Sequence record: NC_025447.1
Direction: 5' to 3' (one strand)
From: Escherichia phage 121Q
DNA length: 64,000 bases
Part shown: piece by piece, positions 43,709 to 55,107 of the stretch
Position numbering within the stretch: position 1 is the first letter of the stretch
Layout: each line of letters starts with the position of its first letter
Translations under genes and position numbers: made by a program
Notes under the pieces: generated by a model
What the model was told of the DNA's origin: nothing
Seen by the model: the letters and a program-made list of their open reading frames with translations, nothing else
Databases searched by the model: none

Positions 43709-44023
43709 ATGAATAAAGAACTTGCATTTGAGAGGATCGAAAAGTTAAAGTACATTGAAAAGGAACTAATAGAATCTGTCGAATCAATGGTCGAAGATTA
43801 CGTTTTCGATTTTAAGAAAACATTGATTGGATGTAAAGTTAAATGCTGGGATCATACAATCAGAGAATGGTTCAGTACTATAATTCTTGATGTTAAAGTA
43901 TCGCGTACTGCTATTGGTAATTTAGTAAATGGTGAATGCTTTGTATACACTGAATACAATAACGGAACAAGAAACCTTTCAAGAGGATGGCACAAACTCG
44001 AAGATGTAGAATTCATTGAGTAA
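43709..44023 (+). CDS. KYxG-V family small protein
   Basis: KKTLIGCKVKCWD motif. Confidence 0.45.
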   Translation: MNKELAFERIEKLKYIEKELIESVESMVEDYVFDFKKTLIGCKVKCWDHTIREWFSTIILDVKVSRTAIGNLVNGECFVYTEYNNGTRNLSRGWHKLEDVEFIE

Positions 44024-44035
44024 CAAGGAGTAATA

Positions 44036-44968
44036 ATGCCAACTATTACACTGACAGTTGGATTACCTGGGTGTGGCAAAACCACATGGGCAGTTCAAGA
44101 AATTAAAAATGCCAAATCGAAGACTATCAACATTAACCGTGATGACATTCGAGAATCAATGGCAGGGTCACATGATGCATACAAATTCAACGACGCTAAT
44201 GAGCAGTACGTAACTAAAATGCAGTTCAGTGCAGCAAATTCAGCAGCAGAGAATGGTTGGAACATCATTGTGTCCGATACGAACCTTAAACAACATTTCC
44301 GTGATGAATGGAAACGTTGGGCTAAAGATAATGAATACGACTACAAAGAAAAGAACTTCTACGAAGATTTCGTACCTAATGAAGATCGTGGTGCAGATGT
44401 TCATGTTTTCTTTAAGATTAAAGAGTTCGTAAAACTTTGTAAGAAACGTAACCTCATGCGTGAGCGTTCAGTACAAGATAATATCATCGACACTATGGCA
44501 GATACGTACTATTATAGTAAGGCCATGCACATTGGTTACTATGGTAATTCACGAGAAGCTGCTGTTATCGTTGATATTGACGGTACTCTTGCTCATAAAT
44601 GGGGTCGCAATCCTTACGATGAAAGTACTGTTCTTCAGGATACACCAGATGAAGAAGTTATTTTGTCTATTATCGCTGAAGCAGTTTTTCATAAACGCAA
44701 GATTATCGTCATGAGTGGGCGTACTGAAGGGTGTCGTGCTGATACCGAACAGTGGCTTAAGAATTGGGGTATTCCTTACGATGCATTGTTTATGCGAGAC
44801 ATAGATGATAAACGTCCCGATGATGTTGTAAAATTCGACCTGTACATGAAAAATGTGGTTGATCATTACGATGTTAAAAAGGTTTATGATGACCGCGATC
44901 AAGTTGTATTCATGTGGCGTAAGCTACTTGGCTTGAAAGTAATGCAAGTTGCAGAAGGAAATTTCTAA
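44036..44968 (+). CDS. pseT: polynucleotide 5'-kinase / 3'-phosphatase
   Basis: N-terminal Walker A GLPGCGKTTW plus NINRDD; C-terminal HAD phosphatase motif VIVDIDGTLA and DDRDQVV; T4 Pnk-like. Confidence 0.85.
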   Translation: MPTITLTVGLPGCGKTTWAVQEIKNAKSKTININRDDIRESMAGSHDAYKFNDANEQYVTKMQFSAANSAAENGWNIIVSDTNLKQHFRDEWKRWAKDNEYDYKEKNFYEDFVPNEDRGADVHVFFKIKEFVKLCKKRNLMRERSVQDNIIDTMADTYYYSKAMHIGYYGNSREAAVIVDIDGTLAHKWGRNPYDESTVLQDTPDEEVILSIIAEAVFHKRKIIVMSGRTEGCRADTEQWLKNWGIPYDALFMRDIDDKRPDDVVKFDLYMKNVVDHYDVKKVYDDRDQVVFMWRKLLGLKVMQVAEGNF

Positions 44969-44972
44969 TACA

Positions 44973-44999
44973 AAAGGGATCATATGTTGGTCCCTTTTT
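44973..44999 (+). terminator. rho-independent terminator (weak stem)
   Basis: AGGGA...TCCCT hairpin followed by TTTTTC. Confidence 0.45.
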
Positions 45000-45017
45000 C
45001 TTTTAAGGTATATTATA

Positions 45018-45194
45018 ATGAATGTAAAAACACAGATGTTGTTACAAAAAGAATACTTAGAAAATATAGAAATGTTCTATAGATTGTCTTTATACGAAAA
45101 TAAAGATAAAAAATATAACTTTTCTAAACAACTAAACACAAGTACTAATGATTATCTATTTTCATCAATGTTTTATGTGAGAGGTTTATTATAA
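45018..45194 (+). CDS. hypothetical small protein
   Basis: Internal ATG at 45018 of ORF 44949-45194, downstream of terminator; weak RBS. Confidence 0.3.
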   Translation: MNVKTQMLLQKEYLENIEMFYRLSLYENKDKKYNFSKQLNTSTNDYLFSSMFYVRGLL

Positions 45195-45454
45195 TGGATA
45201 AATTTCACACAGATATAACACAGATAGGTAATCTTATCAATAGTCTAATTACTGATTTAGAAGAAAAGTATTTAGGTCGAAATGTATACGTAGAAATGTA
45301 TGAAACATATGGTGTTATTGATATGATTTATTACAGTGCATTGAAGTGTGAAATACGTTTAACAGTATGTTTGTTTGAAAAAAATACATTCAACAGAAGT
45401 ACTGCAATTCGCCAAGTTGGAGTTGATGATATAGAATTATACGAGGAACAATGA
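45194..45454 (+). CDS. KYxG-V family small protein
   Basis: LEEKYLGRNVYVEMYETYG. Confidence 0.5.
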   Translation: MDKFHTDITQIGNLINSLITDLEEKYLGRNVYVEMYETYGVIDMIYYSALKCEIRLTVCLFEKNTFNRSTAIRQVGVDDIELYEEQ

Positions 45455-45705
45455 TGTTTGAGCAAGACTTAGAGATATTCAAAAGTCATATTGATTACTT
45501 GACTATATTAGAAAATGATTTAACTACAAAGTACAAAGGTATTCGTGTTCTGTGCTGGTATGATGATTGGGATTATAAACGTGAACTCACTATTGATCGA
45601 ATTTATTTCAGTGACGGTGTACTAAATGTACATGGTGTAAATGATTTTGGTCATTCATATACATATTCTAATAATGCTAAATTTAAAAGGATCTACAATG
45701 AATGA
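45451..45705 (+). CDS. KYxG-V family small protein
   Basis: LTTKYKGIRVLCWYD. Confidence 0.5.
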   Translation: MMFEQDLEIFKSHIDYLTILENDLTTKYKGIRVLCWYDDWDYKRELTIDRIYFSDGVLNVHGVNDFGHSYTYSNNAKFKRIYNE

Positions 45706-46000
45706 ATATTATCATAATTTATTCGATTACATAAAACTAATAGATGATCTTTCTTTCGAATTTCTTAGTACTGAAAAAGTTCTTGAACCTCTCTATTATG
45801 ATTGTATTAGTTCACTATCTTTAGATGAAAAAGAGATATTATCAAATAATTTACCGTCAACCGTCTGTGTAATCAATGGTTCCAAGGCTGTGGTGTCTGA
45901 GGTTAATTTTCATAAATCACTTAATACAATTGTTTACAAGTTCGATAACACTTGGATCAATCATGTAACCAGTAATATTAAATCTGTGAGATTTTTATGA
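45698..46000 (+). CDS. hypothetical small protein
   Basis: ATG at 45698 (MNEYYHN...) overlapping upstream stop. Confidence 0.45.
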   Translation: MNEYYHNLFDYIKLIDDLSFEFLSTEKVLEPLYYDCISSLSLDEKEILSNNLPSTVCVINGSKAVVSEVNFHKSLNTIVYKFDNTWINHVTSNIKSVRFL

Positions 46001-46293
46001 ATATAAAAAAATTATTTGAACAAGTAAATTTATTGTACTGGTGTTCAGACGGTTCAGATAAGGAATATAGTGAAGTTTATTTAGAACTGTTTAGAACTGA
46101 AATTCATTATATTCGAAGATACTTAATTGATAACAAAACTAAAGTACAAGTAAGATACCATAATGGTACTTTAAAGGATGGTATAATTATTGGATTGATA
46201 GTTGCACGATGGTCTAGTAATATTAAAGTTGCAGTAAGATTAATGACTGATGATGGTGTCTACACAATAGAAGCTAGTGAGATTATATATTAA
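45997..46293 (+). CDS. KYxG-V family small protein
   Basis: ATGA overlap start; DNKTKVQVRYHNG. Confidence 0.45.
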   Translation: MNIKKLFEQVNLLYWCSDGSDKEYSEVYLELFRTEIHYIRRYLIDNKTKVQVRYHNGTLKDGIIIGLIVARWSSNIKVAVRLMTDDGVYTIEASEIIY

Positions 46294-46599
46294 ATGGATA
46301 TACAAACATTCAATAAGCTAAAGTACTATGATAATGGTTTTGCATTAATAATTAACGAACTTGATGGGATACCATACGAATATCATAATCAATTAATGAA
46401 GATAGTAAAATGTATATGTGAAGAATTAAAAAGTATGTTTAAAAATGAATATGTTTATGATTTAGGTAATAGTAGCAAAAAACTATACATAAAAAAATTC
46501 TGGGGAACGCATTGTGGTTTAATGGTCGATTTAGGTTTAAGTTTAGACGATAATTCTGAATCATGTTCATTATATATAGATGAAATGCGAATATCATGA
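46294..46599 (+). CDS. hypothetical small protein
   Basis: 101 aa ORF starting immediately after upstream stop. Confidence 0.45.
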   Translation: MDIQTFNKLKYYDNGFALIINELDGIPYEYHNQLMKIVKCICEELKSMFKNEYVYDLGNSSKKLYIKKFWGTHCGLMVDLGLSLDDNSESCSLYIDEMRIS

Positions 46600-46656
46600 G
46601 ACGTATCAGAATTCGGTGATATAATTTGATTACATCACCAATGTGGAGAAGTTGAA

Positions 46657-46983
46657 GTGAATGGTTCGTTTTTAACAATTTTAGAAAAGACATCCGAGAT
46701 GCTTTCTAGTTCGTTAATGCACATTTTCAGTACTAATAATTTATACAATACCCAGGTGTTAGATTCAATTAGTAATAACTATGTGGTAAGTATATCTGAT
46801 GAAATATGTCCATTTAATGCGTATACGAATTATAGTGTAGAAGAGTTTCATATATCCGAGATTCGATGTGGTTTTGGTGCTTGGTTAGTTCTAAATGAAC
46901 GTTCAGGGACGTCTTTATACATCGAAGAAATTGATAAATTTATATACAAAGGAGTAGAATATGTTAACCCCAATCATTCTTAG
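46657..46983 (+). CDS. hypothetical protein
   Basis: 108 aa ORF downstream of GTGATATAAT -10 element near 46614; start codon uncertain. Confidence 0.4.
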   Translation: MNGSFLTILEKTSEMLSSSLMHIFSTNNLYNTQVLDSISNNYVVSISDEICPFNAYTNYSVEEFHISEIRCGFGAWLVLNERSGTSLYIEEIDKFIYKGVEYVNPNHS

Positions 46984-47590
46984 CAGTGCATATGTAATCG
47001 GTATTATTATTTCTGGTATGCTTGCATATAACTATAACAGAAGTGTTATAGGTTATGTAGTACTTGGTACAGTACTAAGTCCAGTGATTGCTATTGGTCT
47101 TCTTGTTATGCTAGGTGAGAAAAATACAAACTTCTTTATTACTAAAGAACTTGATAAAATCACCCCAGCACCAGAAACAGTTATTCCAGAAGTTAAAGAA
47201 GAAGTTAAAGAAGTTGAAGTGCAAATGCAAGTTAAAGTGTATAATACACTTGAAGAAACTGACCCTAAAGTTGTAGTGAATGTAGTTCCAGTCGTTGAAG
47301 ATGTGAAACCAAAAGCTCCTAAAGCACAGAAAAATACTAAAACTGCAAAGAAAGCTCGTTACACTAAAGGTAAGAACAAAGGTAAATCTAAGGATGAACC
47401 ACAACTAGGTGTTCATGACCATACTGCACAAATTGCAACGGCAGCGACCGCAGCAGCAATCGTAACATCACCAATCTACAACAATGATGATTACAGTGAT
47501 TATAGCCGTCACAGCAGTTCTTCCTCTGATTCTTGTTCCTATGATAGCTCTAGTTCTGATTCAAGTTCATCTTCTGGAAGTTGTGATTAA
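46961..47590 (+). CDS. membrane protein with Ser-rich low-complexity C-terminus
   Basis: AAAGGAG RBS; two hydrophobic segments near N-terminus; C-terminal SSSSSDSCSYDSSSSDSSSSSGSCD. Confidence 0.55.
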   Translation: MLTPIILSSAYVIGIIISGMLAYNYNRSVIGYVVLGTVLSPVIAIGLLVMLGEKNTNFFITKELDKITPAPETVIPEVKEEVKEVEVQMQVKVYNTLEETDPKVVVNVVPVVEDVKPKAPKAQKNTKTAKKARYTKGKNKGKSKDEPQLGVHDHTAQIATAATAAAIVTSPIYNNDDYSDYSRHSSSSSDSCSYDSSSSDSSSSSGSCD

Positions 47591-47919
47591 TGTCAATGAA
47601 ACCACTAATTCAACATAATATTTTTTATAGGTCATTATTCAAAATTCAAGATGATTTTTATCAGACGTTGAGTAATGATCTTATAGGTAAAACTGTACGA
47701 TATTCGGAACAATACATCAAACGTATGACAAGTCAGTATATTGACCCTGAATACGAATACGACATTGAACACATTAATCCCAATACTAGAATGAAAATCA
47801 TTGAGATATTTAAGAATGGGAGAACTATAGGTGCTGAAATTGAGTACTTGAATTGTGATTGTTACATAGATACAGAGTTGAGTTTGGATTATCTTGTTTT
47901 AGTGGATGATGAGGAATAA
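47590..47919 (+). CDS. KYxG-V family small protein
   Basis: NDLIGKTVRYSEQY. Confidence 0.5.
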   Translation: MSMKPLIQHNIFYRSLFKIQDDFYQTLSNDLIGKTVRYSEQYIKRMTSQYIDPEYEYDIEHINPNTRMKIIEIFKNGRTIGAEIEYLNCDCYIDTELSLDYLVLVDDEE

Positions 47920-47921
47920 TT

Positions 47922-48137
47922 ATGATAACATTTTTCGCAATATATGGATTTGTAGCATTTGTTACATTTATAACCAACTTTCTAGTACTTAATTGGGGTT
48001 GTTTTAAAGATGAAATCATGATTATCATGAATCTCCAAACAGCAGCACTGATGGCTATTATTTGGCCTGTAACGTTAGTATATATTTTTATTTCACTTAC
48101 CCAAGATATTATTAACAAATATAAGAGAAAGAAATAA
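47922..48137 (+). CDS. small membrane protein
   Basis: 71 aa with two hydrophobic stretches; C-terminal KYKRKK. Confidence 0.5.
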   Translation: MITFFAIYGFVAFVTFITNFLVLNWGCFKDEIMIIMNLQTAALMAIIWPVTLVYIFISLTQDIINKYKRKK

Positions 48138-48388
48138 TGTTCAACAACGACTTATCACATTTGCGATATCTTATGTCTTTGGCTGATGATTTTATAAATG
48201 ATCTGAAGCCAAAATATATTGGTCAAGAAGTACGATTAATAAACTCCAGAGGGTATGGAAAATATATTATTACTGATATGTATATTAGTGGTGGTGAATG
48301 GCGTTTTAAAATTAATACTTATCTTAAAGATGGTTCTTTTGCTGGAACACAAGTTACTAAACACACTAATATTATATGGTTGGAGTAA
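48137..48388 (+). CDS. KYxG-V family small protein
   Basis: LKPKYIGQEVRLIN. Confidence 0.5.
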   Translation: MFNNDLSHLRYLMSLADDFINDLKPKYIGQEVRLINSRGYGKYIITDMYISGGEWRFKINTYLKDGSFAGTQVTKHTNIIWLE

Positions 48389-48390
48389 TA

Positions 48391-49134
48391 ATGAAACATT
48401 TCTTAGAAGTAACCGTACCTGATGATAAAGATTTATACATTGTAGGTGATTTGCATGGTAATGGTAAACTATGGGATGCTACAGTGAAAGAATTTGGTAT
48501 TACACACAATGATTATGTTTTCAGTGTAGGTGATATTATCGACCGTGGAGAACAAAATTCAAAGCTCCTTTTTGAATTTTTGTTCGGAGAAAATCGTTAC
48601 ATGATTGCAGGTAATCATGAGATGATGTGCGTTGATTCGGAAACACTTCGAGATTGGTATCATTGTTGGATAAGTAATGGTGGTGATAAATTCCTTGATG
48701 AAGTTGGAGGAACAGGCATTCAATTCTTTCGTCAGTACTTAAAAGATCTCCCTATGATTATCCAAATCAATCACCGAGGCTTGAAGATTGGGTTAGTTCA
48801 TGCTGGAGTTCCGTTGGAATATACAACATGGGAACGATTTGTTAATGGGACAAAATCACTTAGTGCTGATATAATTGATAAGTGCTTGTGGGATAGGAAA
48901 ACATTCGATTATTGTAGAACGAATAATACCTATTATGCACCTAAGTTAGATGGAGTGCATTGTGTCTTTAGTGGACATACAGCAGTTACTGATCCACTCA
49001 TTTATGGTAATCGCATTTGGATTGATAGTCAGTTCTTGACGGGTGACTTAACTCTCGCTACTCCACAAAGTGGTGGGATGAGATACTTACGTAAAGAAAA
49101 AGATGAATACTCATTCAATCGTTTCAAAAGGTAA
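48391..49134 (+). CDS. Ser/Thr protein phosphatase (PPP family, lambda-phosphatase-like)
   Basis: GDLHGN, GDIIDRGEQN and AGNHE metallophosphatase motifs; GGAG RBS 5 nt upstream. Confidence 0.8.
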   Translation: MKHFLEVTVPDDKDLYIVGDLHGNGKLWDATVKEFGITHNDYVFSVGDIIDRGEQNSKLLFEFLFGENRYMIAGNHEMMCVDSETLRDWYHCWISNGGDKFLDEVGGTGIQFFRQYLKDLPMIIQINHRGLKIGLVHAGVPLEYTTWERFVNGTKSLSADIIDKCLWDRKTFDYCRTNNTYYAPKLDGVHCVFSGHTAVTDPLIYGNRIWIDSQFLTGDLTLATPQSGGMRYLRKEKDEYSFNRFKR

Positions 49135-49139
49135 TAATT

Positions 49140-49409
49140 ATGCATGATGTAGTTAAAAAATATTTGAATGATAGATATATTATGAAAAAATCTATTAATT
49201 CTATCCTAAAAGATCATGCTAATCAAATACGTGAGATTCTATCAAATAAACTTATTGGTTGTTCAGTTGAGTTCAATTACAAAAAGAATGTAGTGAAGAT
49301 TGGAGTTATTAAACGTGTAGTTGCTGTTTATGACCAAAATGTATATGTTGAAATTGAATATGATGGTAAATTATCACAATTAAGTACTGAAGATTTAACA
49401 TTTTTATAA
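49140..49409 (+). CDS. KYxG-V family small protein
   Basis: SNKLIGCSVEFNY. Confidence 0.5.
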   Translation: MHDVVKKYLNDRYIMKKSINSILKDHANQIREILSNKLIGCSVEFNYKKNVVKIGVIKRVVAVYDQNVYVEIEYDGKLSQLSTEDLTFL

Positions 49410-49419
49410 GGAAATAGAA

Positions 49420-49647
49420 ATGAAAGTAATTCAAGTTATGGTAGAAAAATACCAAACTGAAGATGGTCGTATTTTTGATTCAGCTAAACAAGCTGAACAC
49501 CATGAACGTATTATTTCGGGTGCACGTAAAGTGTGTCCTACATGTAGTGGAACACAACAAGTACCGTCAGAAGATTACCGCAGCTTTTATGCTTGTCCAC
49601 ACTGTGATGGGAAAGGCTATGTAGAAAAACAAGAGGTATGGAAATGA
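49420..49647 (+). CDS. small zinc-finger protein (DnaJ-type CxxCxGxG)
   Basis: CPTCSGTQ and CPHCDGKG motifs. Confidence 0.55.
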   Translation: MKVIQVMVEKYQTEDGRIFDSAKQAEHHERIISGARKVCPTCSGTQQVPSEDYRSFYACPHCDGKGYVEKQEVWK

Positions 49648-50057
49648 AATTGTATTGCTTAACTAATATGTACTGTCAAGGTGTCCAAGCTGGTATTCAA
49701 GCATTCCATGCTGGTGTTAAACTAATTAAAGAATATGAAGGTACTGCTTTCAGTACTATTATTGATGAATGGTACTATGAACACGAAACTATTGTAGTTC
49801 TAAATGCTGGTGGACATGATAAATTAAATTCTTATTATAACAACCTTAGCAAACAGGGGAAAGTTCCGTTTGCCAAGTTCAATGAAGCTGGATTGAATGA
49901 TGCTATTACCTGTGTAGCAGTACTGTGTACGTCTGAAATGATTGAAGACATGGCTGTTATGCGTATGAATCTTCCTGCTGGTGATCAACTAATGCAAGTA
50001 AAATATGGTGCATTGTTTGACACACTAAAAGCAATCAGTACAATGAGGACTATTTGA
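49638..50057 (+). CDS. hypothetical protein
   Basis: 139 aa ORF. Confidence 0.5.
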   Translation: MEMKLYCLTNMYCQGVQAGIQAFHAGVKLIKEYEGTAFSTIIDEWYYEHETIVVLNAGGHDKLNSYYNNLSKQGKVPFAKFNEAGLNDAITCVAVLCTSEMIEDMAVMRMNLPAGDQLMQVKYGALFDTLKAISTMRTI

Positions 50058-51256
50058 TGGATTTTCCAGAGAAGTTATTTGTTGCACGTTCCTATGTAAA
50101 CCACAACCAAGTTGATGGTTTTATTATCGATGCAACAAAATCACATACAAAAGCGTTTGAAACAAAGAAAGAGAGAGCAGAGTACTGGGCAAAGAAGAAC
50201 AATCTTCCATCGTTATATATTGACAACGTTCCAACTACTGGATTTTGTGTAGTTGATAAATTAACAATTCATGCACGAGAAACATATTTCACAATCCGTC
50301 ACCCAGAAGGATTTGAATTTATGATTAGTGCCAAAAACATGAATGATTTAATTATCAATAACGATATAATCAAAGGTGTTTTTGTAGACCCAATGTTTTT
50401 CAACAATAACTTAGAATTAATTAATGGTAAAACAAAAACATTTGCTAAGTTAGTTGAAAAAGAAAATAAAAAAGAACAACAAAAAGAAACTGTAGCAGGT
50501 CTTAAAGTTGGTGATGGTTTCACGTATCTCAAAGAAGATTACTATTACTGCGGTAAAGTACATGCAATTTGTATAAAGAAAACTAAAGAATTTGCATACC
50601 CCGACAAAAGTTCTGTTTATCATTTACTTTTTAACAGTACTCGTGGAACTTATGCATTGAATCAACGTTTGGATAATTACAATCTGGAACCTCGTGCACT
50701 CTTGAATAAGAAAACTACGGCAGATGAAGAAATTAAACTTGCTAATGAATTTTGGCAAAGCTATAGAACAAACAGACATAATCCATTAGGTGAATCTAAC
50801 ATTCCAGTACTGGTACACAATAAATCATTTAAAGCAAAAGACCTAAAAATTAAATATGAAGAAATAAATGTTGATGATCTTATGAATAATGGACGTTTCA
50901 ACGAGAACGTACCATTTATGACTAAAGATAATGAACAATCTTATCGCGTATTTTTTGGTGTAAGTAATAATACAACACGTAGTTATTATGGACGTAGCGG
51001 GGATTATAATATTCATTATAATGATAAATTTGAACGCTTTAGTGCATACCCAGTTCAAATTGATGATAATGGAATTATGTCAATGGATGTTGATATTAAT
51101 GAGCACACATCATTTAGTACATGGAACGGTTATCGTTCACCATTCTTCCCACCAAATGAACGCAAAACATCAAGTTCTCGTTACTACCAAGATAAGCCGT
51201 GTCACGTTCAACTATCAATTAGTAATCCACTTTATATTGGAAAGTATTATCTATAA
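50054..51256 (+). CDS. hypothetical protein (400 aa)
   Basis: Long ORF with ATGA coupling; internal opposite-strand ORFs judged shadows. Confidence 0.55.
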   Translation: MMDFPEKLFVARSYVNHNQVDGFIIDATKSHTKAFETKKERAEYWAKKNNLPSLYIDNVPTTGFCVVDKLTIHARETYFTIRHPEGFEFMISAKNMNDLIINNDIIKGVFVDPMFFNNNLELINGKTKTFAKLVEKENKKEQQKETVAGLKVGDGFTYLKEDYYYCGKVHAICIKKTKEFAYPDKSSVYHLLFNSTRGTYALNQRLDNYNLEPRALLNKKTTADEEIKLANEFWQSYRTNRHNPLGESNIPVLVHNKSFKAKDLKIKYEEINVDDLMNNGRFNENVPFMTKDNEQSYRVFFGVSNNTTRSYYGRSGDYNIHYNDKFERFSAYPVQIDDNGIMSMDVDINEHTSFSTWNGYRSPFFPPNERKTSSSRYYQDKPCHVQLSISNPLYIGKYYL

Positions 51257-51267
51257 AGGAATATACA

Positions 51268-52686
51268 ATGAGCATTTTAGCAATTCTTGAAAGCATTAAA
51301 AATACTAGCAGTACTCTGGGCAAAAAGGCTATTCTTGAACAAAATAAAGATAATGTAACTTTGCAAAAAGTTCTGAAATATACACTCGATCCTAGTATTG
51401 TAAGTGGGTATAAAAAGCTACCAGACGCTGATAACGTGTATCAACATATGACATTGGATGAAGCTATTGATAAACTAGAATGCATCTATAAGCGTGCATT
51501 GACGGGACATACAGGGCGTGATTTCATTGCTTCAGTACTAGGTAGTGTGAGTCCAGATGATGCTGAAGTTCTTCGTAAGATGCTTACAAAGAACTTAGAT
51601 TGTGGTATTCAAGAAAAGAACTGCAATGATGTATTTGGTAAAGGATTTATTAAAGATGAACCATATATGCGTTGTTCTTTGCTTGATAAAAAGACTGTTA
51701 AGAACATCAACTTCAAAGGTCATGGTTATGCTGTCTCCGAGGTCAAGATGGATGGTCAGTACTTAAACCATGTAGTCATTAATGGTGCTCTTACCTCTTC
51801 CTCCCGTAATGGTAAACTATATGACTTCTTAGGTTGTCGTGATGGTGAGATGGCAGGTCTTGCACATCAAATTCAAATGAATGATGAACGTTTTAGTAGT
51901 GGTGTCGTCTTTATGGGTGAAGGTCTAGTACTTGATAATGACGGTGAAACTATTCTTCCACGAACAACTGGTAATGGTATCATTCAGAAGGCTGGTAAAG
52001 ATAGTATTAGTCAGAATGAAGCAATGCGTACTGTATTTGTACTATGGGATGTTGTTCCGTATGATGCATTCTGTGAAGGTACATGGAATGTAAAACGTAA
52101 AGAACGTCGCGAACTTCTTGAATCTGCCATCAATGTATTGGGTAGTGATTTTGTACGTATGGTGAAATACCGTAAGGTTCAAAACATTAAAGAAGCATTT
52201 GAGTACAATAACGAACTCATGGATCAGGGTGAAGAAGGATCAGTACTGAAATGTGAAGATGGTATCTGGAAATCACATACATCTCCTAAGCAGTTGAAAG
52301 TAAAACTAAAAATGCAATTGGATTTGCGTATTGTTGGTTTCAACGAAGGTGAAGGTAAGCGTAAAGGTTCACTTGGTTCTTTACAACTTGAAAGTGCATG
52401 TGGCACACTGAAGGTAAATGTAGGAACAGGTATCCGTGAAAAAGATGCAGAGTGGACATTCAAAACCATTTGGGAACGAATGCAAGAACTAATTGGTAAA
52501 GTCGTTACCGTTGAGTGCAATGAGATTGTAATCGACAAGCGTACAGGTGAACCATCACTATTTTTACCAGTGTTTATTGAATTTAGATTTGACAAAAACA
52601 CTTGTGACGATTATACTCGTATCTTAGAAATTCGTGATAGTGCTGTTGAGGTGTTCTCTAACAGTATTATTGAAGCACTTAGCTAA
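51268..52686 (+). CDS. ATP-dependent DNA ligase (T4 gp30-like)
   Basis: N-terminus ILAILESIKNTSSTLGKKAILEQNKDN parallels T4 ligase; adenylation KxDG motif EVKMDGQ. Confidence 0.85.
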   Translation: MSILAILESIKNTSSTLGKKAILEQNKDNVTLQKVLKYTLDPSIVSGYKKLPDADNVYQHMTLDEAIDKLECIYKRALTGHTGRDFIASVLGSVSPDDAEVLRKMLTKNLDCGIQEKNCNDVFGKGFIKDEPYMRCSLLDKKTVKNINFKGHGYAVSEVKMDGQYLNHVVINGALTSSSRNGKLYDFLGCRDGEMAGLAHQIQMNDERFSSGVVFMGEGLVLDNDGETILPRTTGNGIIQKAGKDSISQNEAMRTVFVLWDVVPYDAFCEGTWNVKRKERRELLESAINVLGSDFVRMVKYRKVQNIKEAFEYNNELMDQGEEGSVLKCEDGIWKSHTSPKQLKVKLKMQLDLRIVGFNEGEGKRKGSLGSLQLESACGTLKVNVGTGIREKDAEWTFKTIWERMQELIGKVVTVECNEIVIDKRTGEPSLFLPVFIEFRFDKNTCDDYTRILEIRDSAVEVFSNSIIEALS

Positions 52687-52705
52687 TCATTTATTGGAGG
52701 TAATT

Positions 52706-53497
52706 ATGAAATTTGTTGTAACATCTGACGTACACGGTGGAACTGATTACCTCCATAGCGGTGATTACAGTGATGTAGTACTGATCATTGCTGGGGACTT
52801 CGATGAAGTTAAACGCAGTCGTTACCGTACTGGTATCGAATCACTGTGTAAGCAGTTCAAAAATGTAGTACTGGTTCCAGGTAATCACGAATATTATGGT
52901 TCCAATATCATCAAAACGCATAAAGTACTATCCAATATGCAGGATGAGATTCCTAATTTTATCTTTTTGCAAAACAAATTTGTATGGCTGGATGGAGTAC
53001 TGCTTGTTGGTAGTACTCTGTGGACAGACTTCGATAAAGGTAATTCTTTGACGAAGTTTGATGCTCGTCAGAAGATGAACGATTACAAACATATCCGTCA
53101 TGGAACAACATCAGAGCCTTGGCGTAAAAAACTGACACCTGATGATACTGAGTTTATGCATCACAAAGATAAACAATTTATCAAAAATTCTATTGACACA
53201 GTTCGCTTTATGCATGATAATGATTTCAAGGTCATCGTGATTACTCATCACGCACCAAGTTATCAAAGTGTTTCACCAAAATATAAAAATGATTCACTGA
53301 ATGGTTGTTACTGTTCCGATATGGATCAGTACATTGAAGATTTGGGTGCTGATGTTTGGATTCATGGTCATGTTCATAGTAGCTTTGACTACCACATTGG
53401 TAAGACACGTATCATTTGTAATCCACGAGGCTATGAATCGTATAGTGGATCTTGTGAGAATTTTGATTACAATCCTAAATTTGTATTTGAAATTTAA
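52706..53497 (+). CDS. calcineurin-like metallophosphoesterase
   Basis: GGAGG RBS; DVHGG, GDF and PGNHEYY motifs. Confidence 0.7.
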   Translation: MKFVVTSDVHGGTDYLHSGDYSDVVLIIAGDFDEVKRSRYRTGIESLCKQFKNVVLVPGNHEYYGSNIIKTHKVLSNMQDEIPNFIFLQNKFVWLDGVLLVGSTLWTDFDKGNSLTKFDARQKMNDYKHIRHGTTSEPWRKKLTPDDTEFMHHKDKQFIKNSIDTVRFMHDNDFKVIVITHHAPSYQSVSPKYKNDSLNGCYCSDMDQYIEDLGADVWIHGHVHSSFDYHIGKTRIICNPRGYESYSGSCENFDYNPKFVFEI

Positions 53498-55059: not shown

Positions 55060-55107
55060 GATAGATTTTGATGCCTCAATATGGGGCATCATCTTTGTGG
55101 AGATTAT

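Follow-up and report, generated by a model that had tools for sequence, protein, structure and literature searches.

The DNA analysed here is a window of 64,000 nucleotides from Escherichia phage 121Q (sequence record NC_025447.1), in which positions 48,391 to 53,497 carry two metallophosphoesterase genes, here termed MPE1 and MPE2, close to a gene for an ATP-dependent DNA ligase. A reading of these letters made from the sequence alone had proposed that two different metallophosphatases flank this ligase. Both were found as open reading frames (ORFs) on the + strand with the proposed limits and with the quoted motifs in place (GDLHGN, GDIIDRG and GNHE in MPE1; SDVHGG, AGDF and GNHEYY in MPE2). 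The word 'flank' is exact for MPE2, which begins 19 nt after the ligase stop codon, but loose for MPE1, from which the ligase, further downstream, is separated by 2.1 kb and four genes. As the 19-nt gap holds no terminator, MPE2 is almost certainly co-transcribed with the ligase. MPE1 was assigned the ATG at 48391, with GGAG 6 nt upstream, and MPE2 the ATG at 52706, preceded by GGAGG; the longer starts in the ORF list (GTG/ATG at 52634 for MPE2 and 48376 for MPE1) were unsupported by homologues. Both genes appear intact and both products are predicted to be binuclear (Mn/Fe/Zn-type) metallophosphoesterases. In a profile-profile comparison of the two, only motifs I-III could be aligned (62 columns, probability 71%), and, as judged from sequence, MPE1 and MPE2 belong to two different clades. 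We regard the family assignments given below as close to certain.

MPE1 matched Pfam Metallophos (5e-11) and, over its full length, PHROG 246, 'NinI-like Ser/Thr phosphatase' (1e-65). A sequence search of the PDB placed the lambda Ser/Thr phosphatase (NinI, 1G5B) at the top, with E values of 2.7e-16 for the single sequence and 1.2e-27 for a 20-sequence profile, while ApaH-type proteins, PP1 and the phosphatase of C. thermocellum Pnkp (CthPnkp) trailed far behind. The AF2 model of MPE1 (pLDDT 93) likewise had 1G5B as its best Foldseek match (1.2e-16, TM 0.79/0.87, rmsd 2.8 Å), the other fold matches being the CthPnkp phosphatase (TM 0.68) and PP1, PP2A and PP5 (~0.6-0.66). The description of the first enzyme as a PPP-type phosphatase was thus borne out by PHROG 246 and by the sequence and fold matches to 1G5B, which place it in the lambda-phosphatase family. 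In all, 1,318 phage records contain a relative of MPE1, among them records of T5-like, phAPEC8-like, Vibrio and lambdoid phages.

The likeness of MPE1 to lambda phosphatase extends to fold, size class and active site, although the identity between the two is only 22-26%. Residues D20, H22, D48, R52, N75, H76, H137, H196 and D212 of MPE1 were invariant across 20 homologues and R169 was kept in at least 90% of them. All active-site residues of the lambda enzyme are retained, including the motif-II arginine (GDIIDRG); common to both are D20, H22, D48/49, R52/53, N75, H76, D212/202, the histidines of motifs IV and V and the arginine of WxR. D212 aligns with lambda D202 (YIDT vs WIDS), an aspartate in place of the second histidine of GHxH. 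MPE1 exceeds the lambda enzyme in length by ~26 residues and has a C-terminal tail that is conserved (R234, D238, S241); it differs also in its setting, as it stands among RNA and DNA repair genes of a lytic jumbo phage whereas the lambda enzyme is encoded in the lambdoid nin region. The phosphatase module of C. thermocellum Pnkp (4J6O) was matched weakly by sequence (E 0.0055 with the profile), and MPE1 is free-standing whereas the former is a module of bacterial Pnkp.

Several other identities were considered for MPE1 and rejected. As an orthologue of E. coli PrpA or PrpB it scored 63.2 and 53.7 bits against NCBIfam equivalog cut-offs of 326 and 332, and as an ApaH diadenosine tetraphosphatase 32 bits against 176, over the N-terminal half only; matches to ApaH-type entries in the PDB (3e-7 and 1e-4) likewise spanned residues 14-145 only. 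A Pnkp-type module operonic with a kinase was set aside since 3.4 kb, 11 ORFs and a terminator-like hairpin separate MPE1 from the polynucleotide kinase (Pnk) of the window. There was also a partial match to PHROG 8238, a 737-position profile labelled RNA ligase (residues 10-142 on positions 169-306, E 1.3e-6), and the PADLOC search with MPE1 returned no match.

The second enzyme had been described as a calcineurin-like phosphoesterase distinct from the first, and this proved correct. MPE2 matched Pfam Metallophos (3.7e-13) and PHROG 1649 (6e-71, with residues 1-263 aligned to positions 36-306 of the 308 in the profile), and displays the five motifs DxH / GD / GNH[ED] / H / GHxH in a diesterase-type site, with no conserved basic residue after G30-D31 and hence no motif-II arginine. 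D8, H10, D31, N60, H61, H181, H222 and H224 were invariant in 50 homologues (35-86% identity). Every metal-coordinating His and Asp was therefore present and invariant in the alignments of both enzymes, the residues whose loss would have spoken against the original assignment. The family also carries signature motifs of its own (TLWTD, MNDY, HHAPS..S and NPRGY).

A comparison with lambda phosphatase on the one hand and Mre11/SbcD-type nucleases on the other had been proposed. It held for MPE1, which is lambda-like, but MPE2 did not prove Mre11/SbcD-like. The nearest solved structure to its AF2 model (pLDDT 95) was instead M. tuberculosis PptH (6UNC; Foldseek 1e-10, TM 0.61-0.67, identity 19-21%), followed by MPPED2 (TM 0.55), Dbr1 (~0.53), Mre11/SbcD (0.45-0.48) and Rv0805/GpdQ (~0.46). 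The closest folds of all (TM 0.74-0.87) were predicted models from other phages and from eukaryote giant viruses, namely Terrestrivirus, Port-miou virus, Pandoravirus, Pithovirus and Marseillevirus. Some of the giant-virus relatives are longer than MPE2, at 446-492 aa (Port-miou virus, Pandoravirus, Yasminevirus). An exhaustive profile search gave 9,772 clusters at 50% identity (E <= 1e-30), the best 150 of which were all single-domain proteins of 248-295 aa with no function-revealing fusion. Relatives of MPE2 were found in 193 phage records, mostly of large myoviruses (KVP40, cyanophages, Rhizobium and Caulobacter phages), and at least 591 bacterial stretches encode one. In PADLOC, MPE2 matched the N-terminal half of the candidate PDC-S10 only, which does not count as evidence for a role in defence or anti-defence.

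The chemistry of the two enzymes was predicted using structure-function rules derived from lambda phosphatase and C. thermocellum Pnkp. Monoesterase activity requires the arginine of GDxxDRG, which Mre11, MJ0936 and Rv0805, enzymes with diesterase activity only, lack; the histidine of GNHE is one determinant of cyclic-nucleotide cleavage; and where lambda phosphatase makes a water-mediated contact through Asp202, diesterases have a histidine; lambda phosphatase also hydrolyses 2',3'-cyclic nucleotides (Keppetipola and Shuman, PMC2190708). By these rules MPE1, which keeps R52, H76 and D212, is predicted to be a lambda-type phosphomonoesterase also able to open 2',3'-cyclic phosphodiesters, and MPE2, which has H61 and GHxH and no motif-II arginine, a phosphodiesterase. 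The two enzymes thus possess chemically different predicted sites, one mono/diesterase and the other diesterase-only.

The gene neighbourhood of MPE2 homologues was then compared across phages (L numbers are the labels of the loci in our analysis). Adjacency of ligase and MPE2 is kept across Rak2-like and Asteriusvirus phages (L005-L008) with only 51-67% identity between their MPE2 proteins. In another contig (L002, 41% identity), the MPE2 homologue overlaps the HAD_PNKP gene of an operon of the order Rnl1-HNH-Pnk kinase-Pnk phosphatase, a synteny seen also in L016, L025, L026, L029 and L043; in L016 a second RNA ligase (PF09414, 4e-25) is inserted directly upstream of the MPE2 homologue with a 4-nt overlap. 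A T5-like contig has an NAD-dependent ligase 1.3 kb downstream of the homologue, and KVP40 its gp30 ligase 2.2 kb downstream. Of 80 IMG/VR loci, 17 have an ATP-dependent ligase gene within 10 kb of MPE2, two an NAD-dependent ligase gene, six an Rnl1 gene and eight a Pnk gene. When the loci were reduced to lineages by clustering MPE2 at 55% identity (n=25), a ligase or Pnk gene lay within 3 kb in 7/25, which gives a naive binomial p of ~5e-4 at a 6% expectation, a null that is too generous because DNA-metabolism genes cluster. This abutment or proximity to ligases or Pnk in several unrelated phage lineages speaks for a role of MPE2 in the processing of nucleic-acid ends. The suggestion that the second enzyme may act on nucleotides or nucleic-acid ends thus gains indirect support, from its diesterase-type site and from its recurrence beside ligases and Pnk in other phages.

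A bacterial Exo-Lig-Lhr-MPE cluster, in which a metallophosphoesterase is encoded with an ATP-dependent ligase, has been taken to suggest a joint repair pathway (PMC7826289). The P. putida MPE of this Exo-Lig-Lhr-Core-MPE cluster is a small, Mn-dependent enzyme, and MPE2 likewise sits beside a ligase. However, neither the sequence nor the fold matches of MPE2 included the P. putida protein, and no Lhr helicase gene adjoins MPE2. As MPE2 falls outside its clade, the bacterial cluster would serve as a functional analogy only.

Other neighbours of MPE2 homologues were seen as well. Unbiased clustering of the neighbouring genes yielded a ClpP-like family (identified by eye), WYL_2, Hsp20, IF-1-like proteins (by eye), HTH proteins and many unknowns, and among these no single dominant partner of MPE2 emerged. 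In 14/81 loci a member of the ClpP-like family is found no more than 4 kb from the MPE2 homologue. An association with ClpP-family proteins is seen both for MPE2, in the window and in these loci, and for the lambda-type phosphatase of a T5-like phage described below. In the Caulobacter phage CcrPW (L172 4001-4762) the MPE2 homologue lies between two large arrays of tRNA genes and adjoins a peptide deformylase gene, and in Xoo-sp13 it adjoins ribonucleotide reductase. The bacterial homologues (80 loci, L092-L171, for example L117 2962-6768) occur in variable contexts. In nine of these loci a gene for a 645-aa AAA+ protein precedes that of the homologue; the ATPase part of the AAA+ protein matches IetA, and an FtsH-type protease region in it was judged by eye. 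A further observation is that seven of the 80 lie upstream of a RecQ-like helicase (by eye only) and some beside toxin-antitoxin-like genes. These bacterial islands may represent a defence-island context.

For MPE1, the alignment-based search for related loci returned five close relatives only, its patterns being too specific. In one phage contig (L028 4942-6970) a 152-aa kinase ORF runs into the 5' end of an ORF for a lambda-type phosphatase of 231 aa. The kinase is best matched by the kinase domain of C. thermocellum Pnkp (4GP6, 3e-12), with T4 Pnk at only 1e-5; the phosphatase matches 1G5B (6e-11) and is 26% identical to MPE1. An MPE2 homologue and a HAD_PNKP gene are present in the same 10 kb. 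The pair would be a split, ligase-less version of bacterial Pnkp, and the overlap of the two predicted genes indicates that in phages a lambda-type phosphatase can be coupled to the healing of polynucleotide ends. The ORF that follows the phosphatase resembles, by eye only, a FEN-type (5'-3') exonuclease. In the T5-like phage pork27 (L178 3971-5355) a lambda-type phosphatase gene is directly followed by a second, 173-aa metallophosphoesterase, and a ClpP gene (L178 74-673) lies 3 kb upstream of the phosphatase. From this tandem it follows that pairs of unlike metallophosphoesterases are not unique to the jumbo phage of the window.

Taken together, we favour, with a probability of roughly 0.45, a reading in which MPE2 would be an end or adduct phosphodiesterase acting alongside joining enzymes and MPE1 a broad monoesterase. 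As a metal-dependent phosphodiesterase, MPE2 would make nucleic-acid ends or nucleotide adducts ready for joining or clean them beforehand; its candidate substrates are 3' ends that are blocked or cyclic, and abortive adenylylated ends. The in vivo target of MPE1 could be a phosphoprotein, or RNA ends bearing a 3'/2'-phosphate or a cyclic phosphate. Both would probably serve accessory rather than core replication functions.

A number of observations weigh against this reading. No ligase or Pnk gene lies within 3 kb of MPE2 in 18 of the 25 lineages, and the ligase association may in part be just clustering of early and middle DNA-metabolism genes, to which the naive 6% null is blind. The Rnl1-Pnk-MPE2 synteny is confined to one phage clade (69-89% identity), and MPE2 also neighbours the ClpP-like family, Hsp20, dCMP deaminase, tRNA arrays and ribonucleotide reductase. 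In the window, a stretch of 3.4 kb with 11 small genes separates MPE1 from the T4-type Pnk upstream of it, with Rnl1 a further 1.1 kb upstream, and this Pnk has a HAD 3'-phosphatase of its own, so that a second end-healing phosphatase is not obviously needed. The solved structure nearest to MPE2, PptH, acts on a protein-linked phosphodiester and not on nucleic acid. Lambda phosphatase is very active on proteins in vitro, and a protein substrate is for MPE1 an equally open reading.

Foremost among the alternatives is that MPE1 is a protein Ser/Thr/Tyr (or His) phosphatase which would dephosphorylate host or phage proteins during infection and in this way interfere with host kinase signalling or kinase-based defence, a possibility raised in the sequence-only reading and one that we place on the unlikely side. 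The closest solved homologue is after all a Ser/Thr phosphatase, that of lambda, with PP1, PP5 and PP2A next; there are weak matches to the E. coli PrpA/PrpB models, and MPE1 keeps the motif-II arginine for monoester hydrolysis (rule from PMC2190708). However, the PrpA/PrpB equivalog cut-offs are missed widely (63 bits vs 326), and the in vivo substrate is not known even for lambda phosphatase (PMC2190708), the gene of which, ninI, is dispensable in lambda (PMC10695390). No kinase or phospho-signalling gene was seen near MPE1; instead, its gene block is dominated by nucleic-acid enzymes, and its L028 relative is translationally coupled to a polynucleotide kinase. Interference with host signalling would thus be suggested by family membership only. 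Searches of the literature on PBECO4 phosphatases, on 6UNC and on in vivo substrates of lambda phosphatase found nothing decisive.

It is unlikely that MPE2 is instead a phosphodiesterase of cyclic nucleotides or oligonucleotides which destroys CBASS, Pycsar or type III CRISPR signals, or hydrolyses cAMP. Its diesterase-type site does keep the GNHE histidine linked to cyclic-nucleotide cleavage, its structural matches include two cyclic-nucleotide phosphodiesterases, MPPED2 (TM 0.55) and Rv0805, as well as GpdQ, a glycerophosphodiesterase (TM ~0.46), a faint match to CpdA was found, and the family is widespread in large phages. As a class III cyclic-nucleotide phosphodiesterase (CpdA/Rv0805), however, MPE2 was rejected, since it misses the CpdA cut-off by far (15.5 bits vs 225) and its TM-scores to cyclic-nucleotide phosphodiesterases are low (0.46-0.47 for Rv0805). 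The family is moreover just as common in bacteria and occurs also in eukaryote giant viruses, which fits poorly with a role against bacterial signalling, and cleavage of cyclic signals leaves the recurrent adjacency of MPE2 to ligases and Pnk unexplained.

It is distinctly unlikely that MPE2 acts as a DNA nuclease, whether by damage to host DNA or by trimming of DNA ends, in the manner of mycobacteriophage Gp48 or of Mre11/SbcD. There are precedents, as a counter-defence metallophosphoesterase of a mycobacteriophage has been described that has diesterase activity and causes breaks in host DNA (PMC12287305), and the P. putida MPE is a single-stranded DNA endonuclease encoded with a ligase (PMC7826289). 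Mre11/SbcD are among the weaker structural matches of MPE2 and have in common with it the five generic metallophosphoesterase motifs, the lack of a motif-II arginine and GHxH. Against this, identity as Mre11/SbcD was rejected on TM-scores of 0.45-0.48, sequence E values of 0.05 to >0.4 and a length of 263 aa without a capping domain. No gene for SbcC/Rad50 adjoins MPE2, its neighbours being the ligase and two small unknown genes, and, as noted above, the P. putida MPE is absent from its matches. With Bxb1 gp47 (cluster A MPE) serving as a proxy for Gp48, hhalign detected no relationship for either window protein (probability 0.9% for MPE1 and 0.6% for MPE2).

That MPE2 is a PptH-like hydrolase, which cleaves a phosphopantetheine-serine (or other group) phosphodiester and so might inactivate host acyl carrier protein (ACP), is most improbable: PptH (Rv2795c) is its best solved match both by profile (3e-8) and by fold, and both are single-domain metallophosphodiesterases of similar size, but the sequence match is limited to motifs I-III (residues 5-72) at 19-21% identity with a modest TM-score, the signature motifs of the MPE2 family fall outside the aligned part, PptH is according to its authors unique to mycobacteria, and nothing in the window gives contextual support for its kind of substrate, a protein-bound cofactor. 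One lead towards ACP, KVP40.0053, which lies two genes downstream of the MPE2 homologue of KVP40 and bears an old 'PF00550' note, was dropped because it has no ACP-like motif and no PP-binding match in current Pfam.

A wider form of the favoured end-processing reading can also be envisaged, which we consider doubtful. Here the MPE2 family would work specifically with polynucleotide ligases and Pnk and clean ends for them, either by taking away 3' termini that are cyclic or blocked or by de-adenylylating intermediates of abortive ligation, and MPE2, MPE1, Rnl1, Pnk and the PTH2-like hydrolase of the window would form a damage-reversal island against host defences that cut or modify tRNA or nucleic-acid ends. 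If the family were such a general end-cleaning partner of ligases, it would constitute a new component of viral nucleic-acid repair and give a function to thousands of 'metallophosphoesterase' annotations, as it is very abundant in phages, giant viruses and bacteria and has no characterised member. The kinase and lambda-type phosphatase pair of L028 also bears on an old question, the role of lambda phosphatase in vivo. As things stand little changes, since both genes already carry the same family names in public genomes. What goes beyond these annotations is the contrast between the active sites of MPE1 and MPE2, and the recurrent contiguity, across lineages, of the PHROG 1649 family with genes for DNA ligase, RNA ligase or Pnk.

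At the nucleotide level, ~20 Asteriusvirus jumbo phages (SHEFM2K, slurp01, phAPEC6, PBECO4 and others) share 94-95% identity with the 5.1-kb interval, and jumbo phages of Cronobacter, Pectobacterium and Yersinia are more remote relatives; by this similarity the window phage is placed as an Asteriusvirus-like jumbo coliphage. RefSeq labels in PBECO4 read, in gene order, 'NinI-like serine-threonine phosphatase', two hypotheticals, 'hydrolase', a hypothetical, 'DNA ligase' (the counterpart of the window ligase) and 'metallo-phosphoesterase'. MPE1 and MPE2 are thus already annotated under the same family names in near-identical Asteriusvirus genomes and their novelty is low; the window itself holds no new architecture or anomaly. 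The features of the locus and its surroundings are collected in Table 1.

Table 1. Features at and around the two metallophosphoesterase genes, in window positions.
Feature	Position	Strand	Basis of assignment
T4 Rnl1-type RNA ligase, 380 aa	41797..42939	+	Pfam RNA_lig_T4_1 9e-16, T4_Rnl1_C 7e-17
T4-type polynucleotide kinase-phosphatase (kinase + HAD 3'-phosphatase), 310 aa	44036..44968	+	Pfam HAD_PNKP 1.9e-43, AAA_33 4.6e-14; PHROG 505 1e-96
Terminator-like hairpin just after Pnk	44972..44998	+	11-bp stem then T-run
MPE1, lambda-phosphatase/NinI-family metallophosphoesterase (predicted binuclear), 247 aa	48391..49134	+	Pfam Metallophos, PHROG 246, 1G5B
Conserved hypothetical, directly 3' of MPE1, 89 aa	49140..49409	+	PHROG 38615 4e-60; no Pfam match
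Small zinc-ribbon protein, CxxC...CxxC, 75 aa	49420..49647	+	PHROG 12574
PTH2-like hydrolase, 139 aa	49638..50057	+	Pfam PTH2 (peptidyl-tRNA hydrolase 2) 2.1e-5; PHROG 3668 'hydrolase' 1.6e-45
Conserved protein between PTH2-like gene and ligase, 400 aa	50054..51256	+	PHROG 14061 1.5e-202
ATP-dependent DNA ligase, 472 aa	51268..52686	+	Pfam DNA_ligase_A_M 1.2e-13, DNA_ligase_OB_2; PHROG 114 2e-119
MPE2, diesterase-type metallophosphoesterase (predicted binuclear), 263 aa	52706..53497	+	Pfam Metallophos, PHROG 1649
ClpP-family protease, 0.9 kb downstream of MPE2, 231 aa	54364..55059	+	Pfam CLP_protease 4e-41
Terminator-like hairpin after ClpP-like gene	55069..55091	+	10-bp stem

Every gene from ~41.8 to 57.7 kb lies on the + strand, and this same-strand block includes Rnl1, the T4-type Pnk, the PTH2-like hydrolase and the ATP-dependent DNA ligase, with a dCMP deaminase further downstream. 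Between 44998 and 55069 the sole other terminator-like site on the + strand is a weak 7-bp one within a gene; as no comparable site intervenes, MPE1 through the ClpP-like gene may form a single transcription unit. A promoter scan gave counts equal to the shuffled expectation and hence no signal. In PBECO4 the orthologue of the window Rnl1 bears an RNA ligase annotation and the ClpP-family gene the label 'head maturation protease'. The Rnl1-type ligase and the T4-type Pnk, 1.1 kb apart on the same strand, make up the classic pair for repair of tRNA anticodon breaks.

Of the genes between MPE1 and the ligase, the PTH2-like gene product barely clears the Pfam PTH2 threshold (25.2 bits vs a cut-off of 23) and gave no match in the PDB sequence search; encoded as it is next to genes of RNA and DNA repair, such a phage enzyme of Pth2-like type may have a tRNA-related function. 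The zinc-ribbon gene, with its two CxxC pairs, overlaps the start of the PTH2-like gene, and its product has sub-threshold Pfam matches to Anti-TRAP and to the DnaJ CXXCXGXG zinc-finger region. Searches of Pfam, NCBIfam, PADLOC and PDB sequences returned no match for the 400-aa protein.

No tRNA genes were found within the 64-kb window, the upstream ~40 kb of which corresponds in PBECO4 to a lengthy series of small genes without annotation. GC skew is above 0 in all 2-kb bins of 1-64000, and the cumulative skew climbs monotonically. About a dozen ORFs of 83-119 aa fill 43709-49409, from Rnl1/Pnk to MPE1. A 209-aa protein (46961-47590) without a family match begins with hydrophobic segments, continues with a K-/V-rich middle and ends in a serine-rich acidic tail (SSSSSDSCSYDSSSSDSSSSSGSCD). 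Three of the small ORFs (43709-44023, 45194-45454 and 48137-48388) resemble one another weakly (E 0.002-0.008, 26-30% identity) and may represent a diverged family of paralogues.

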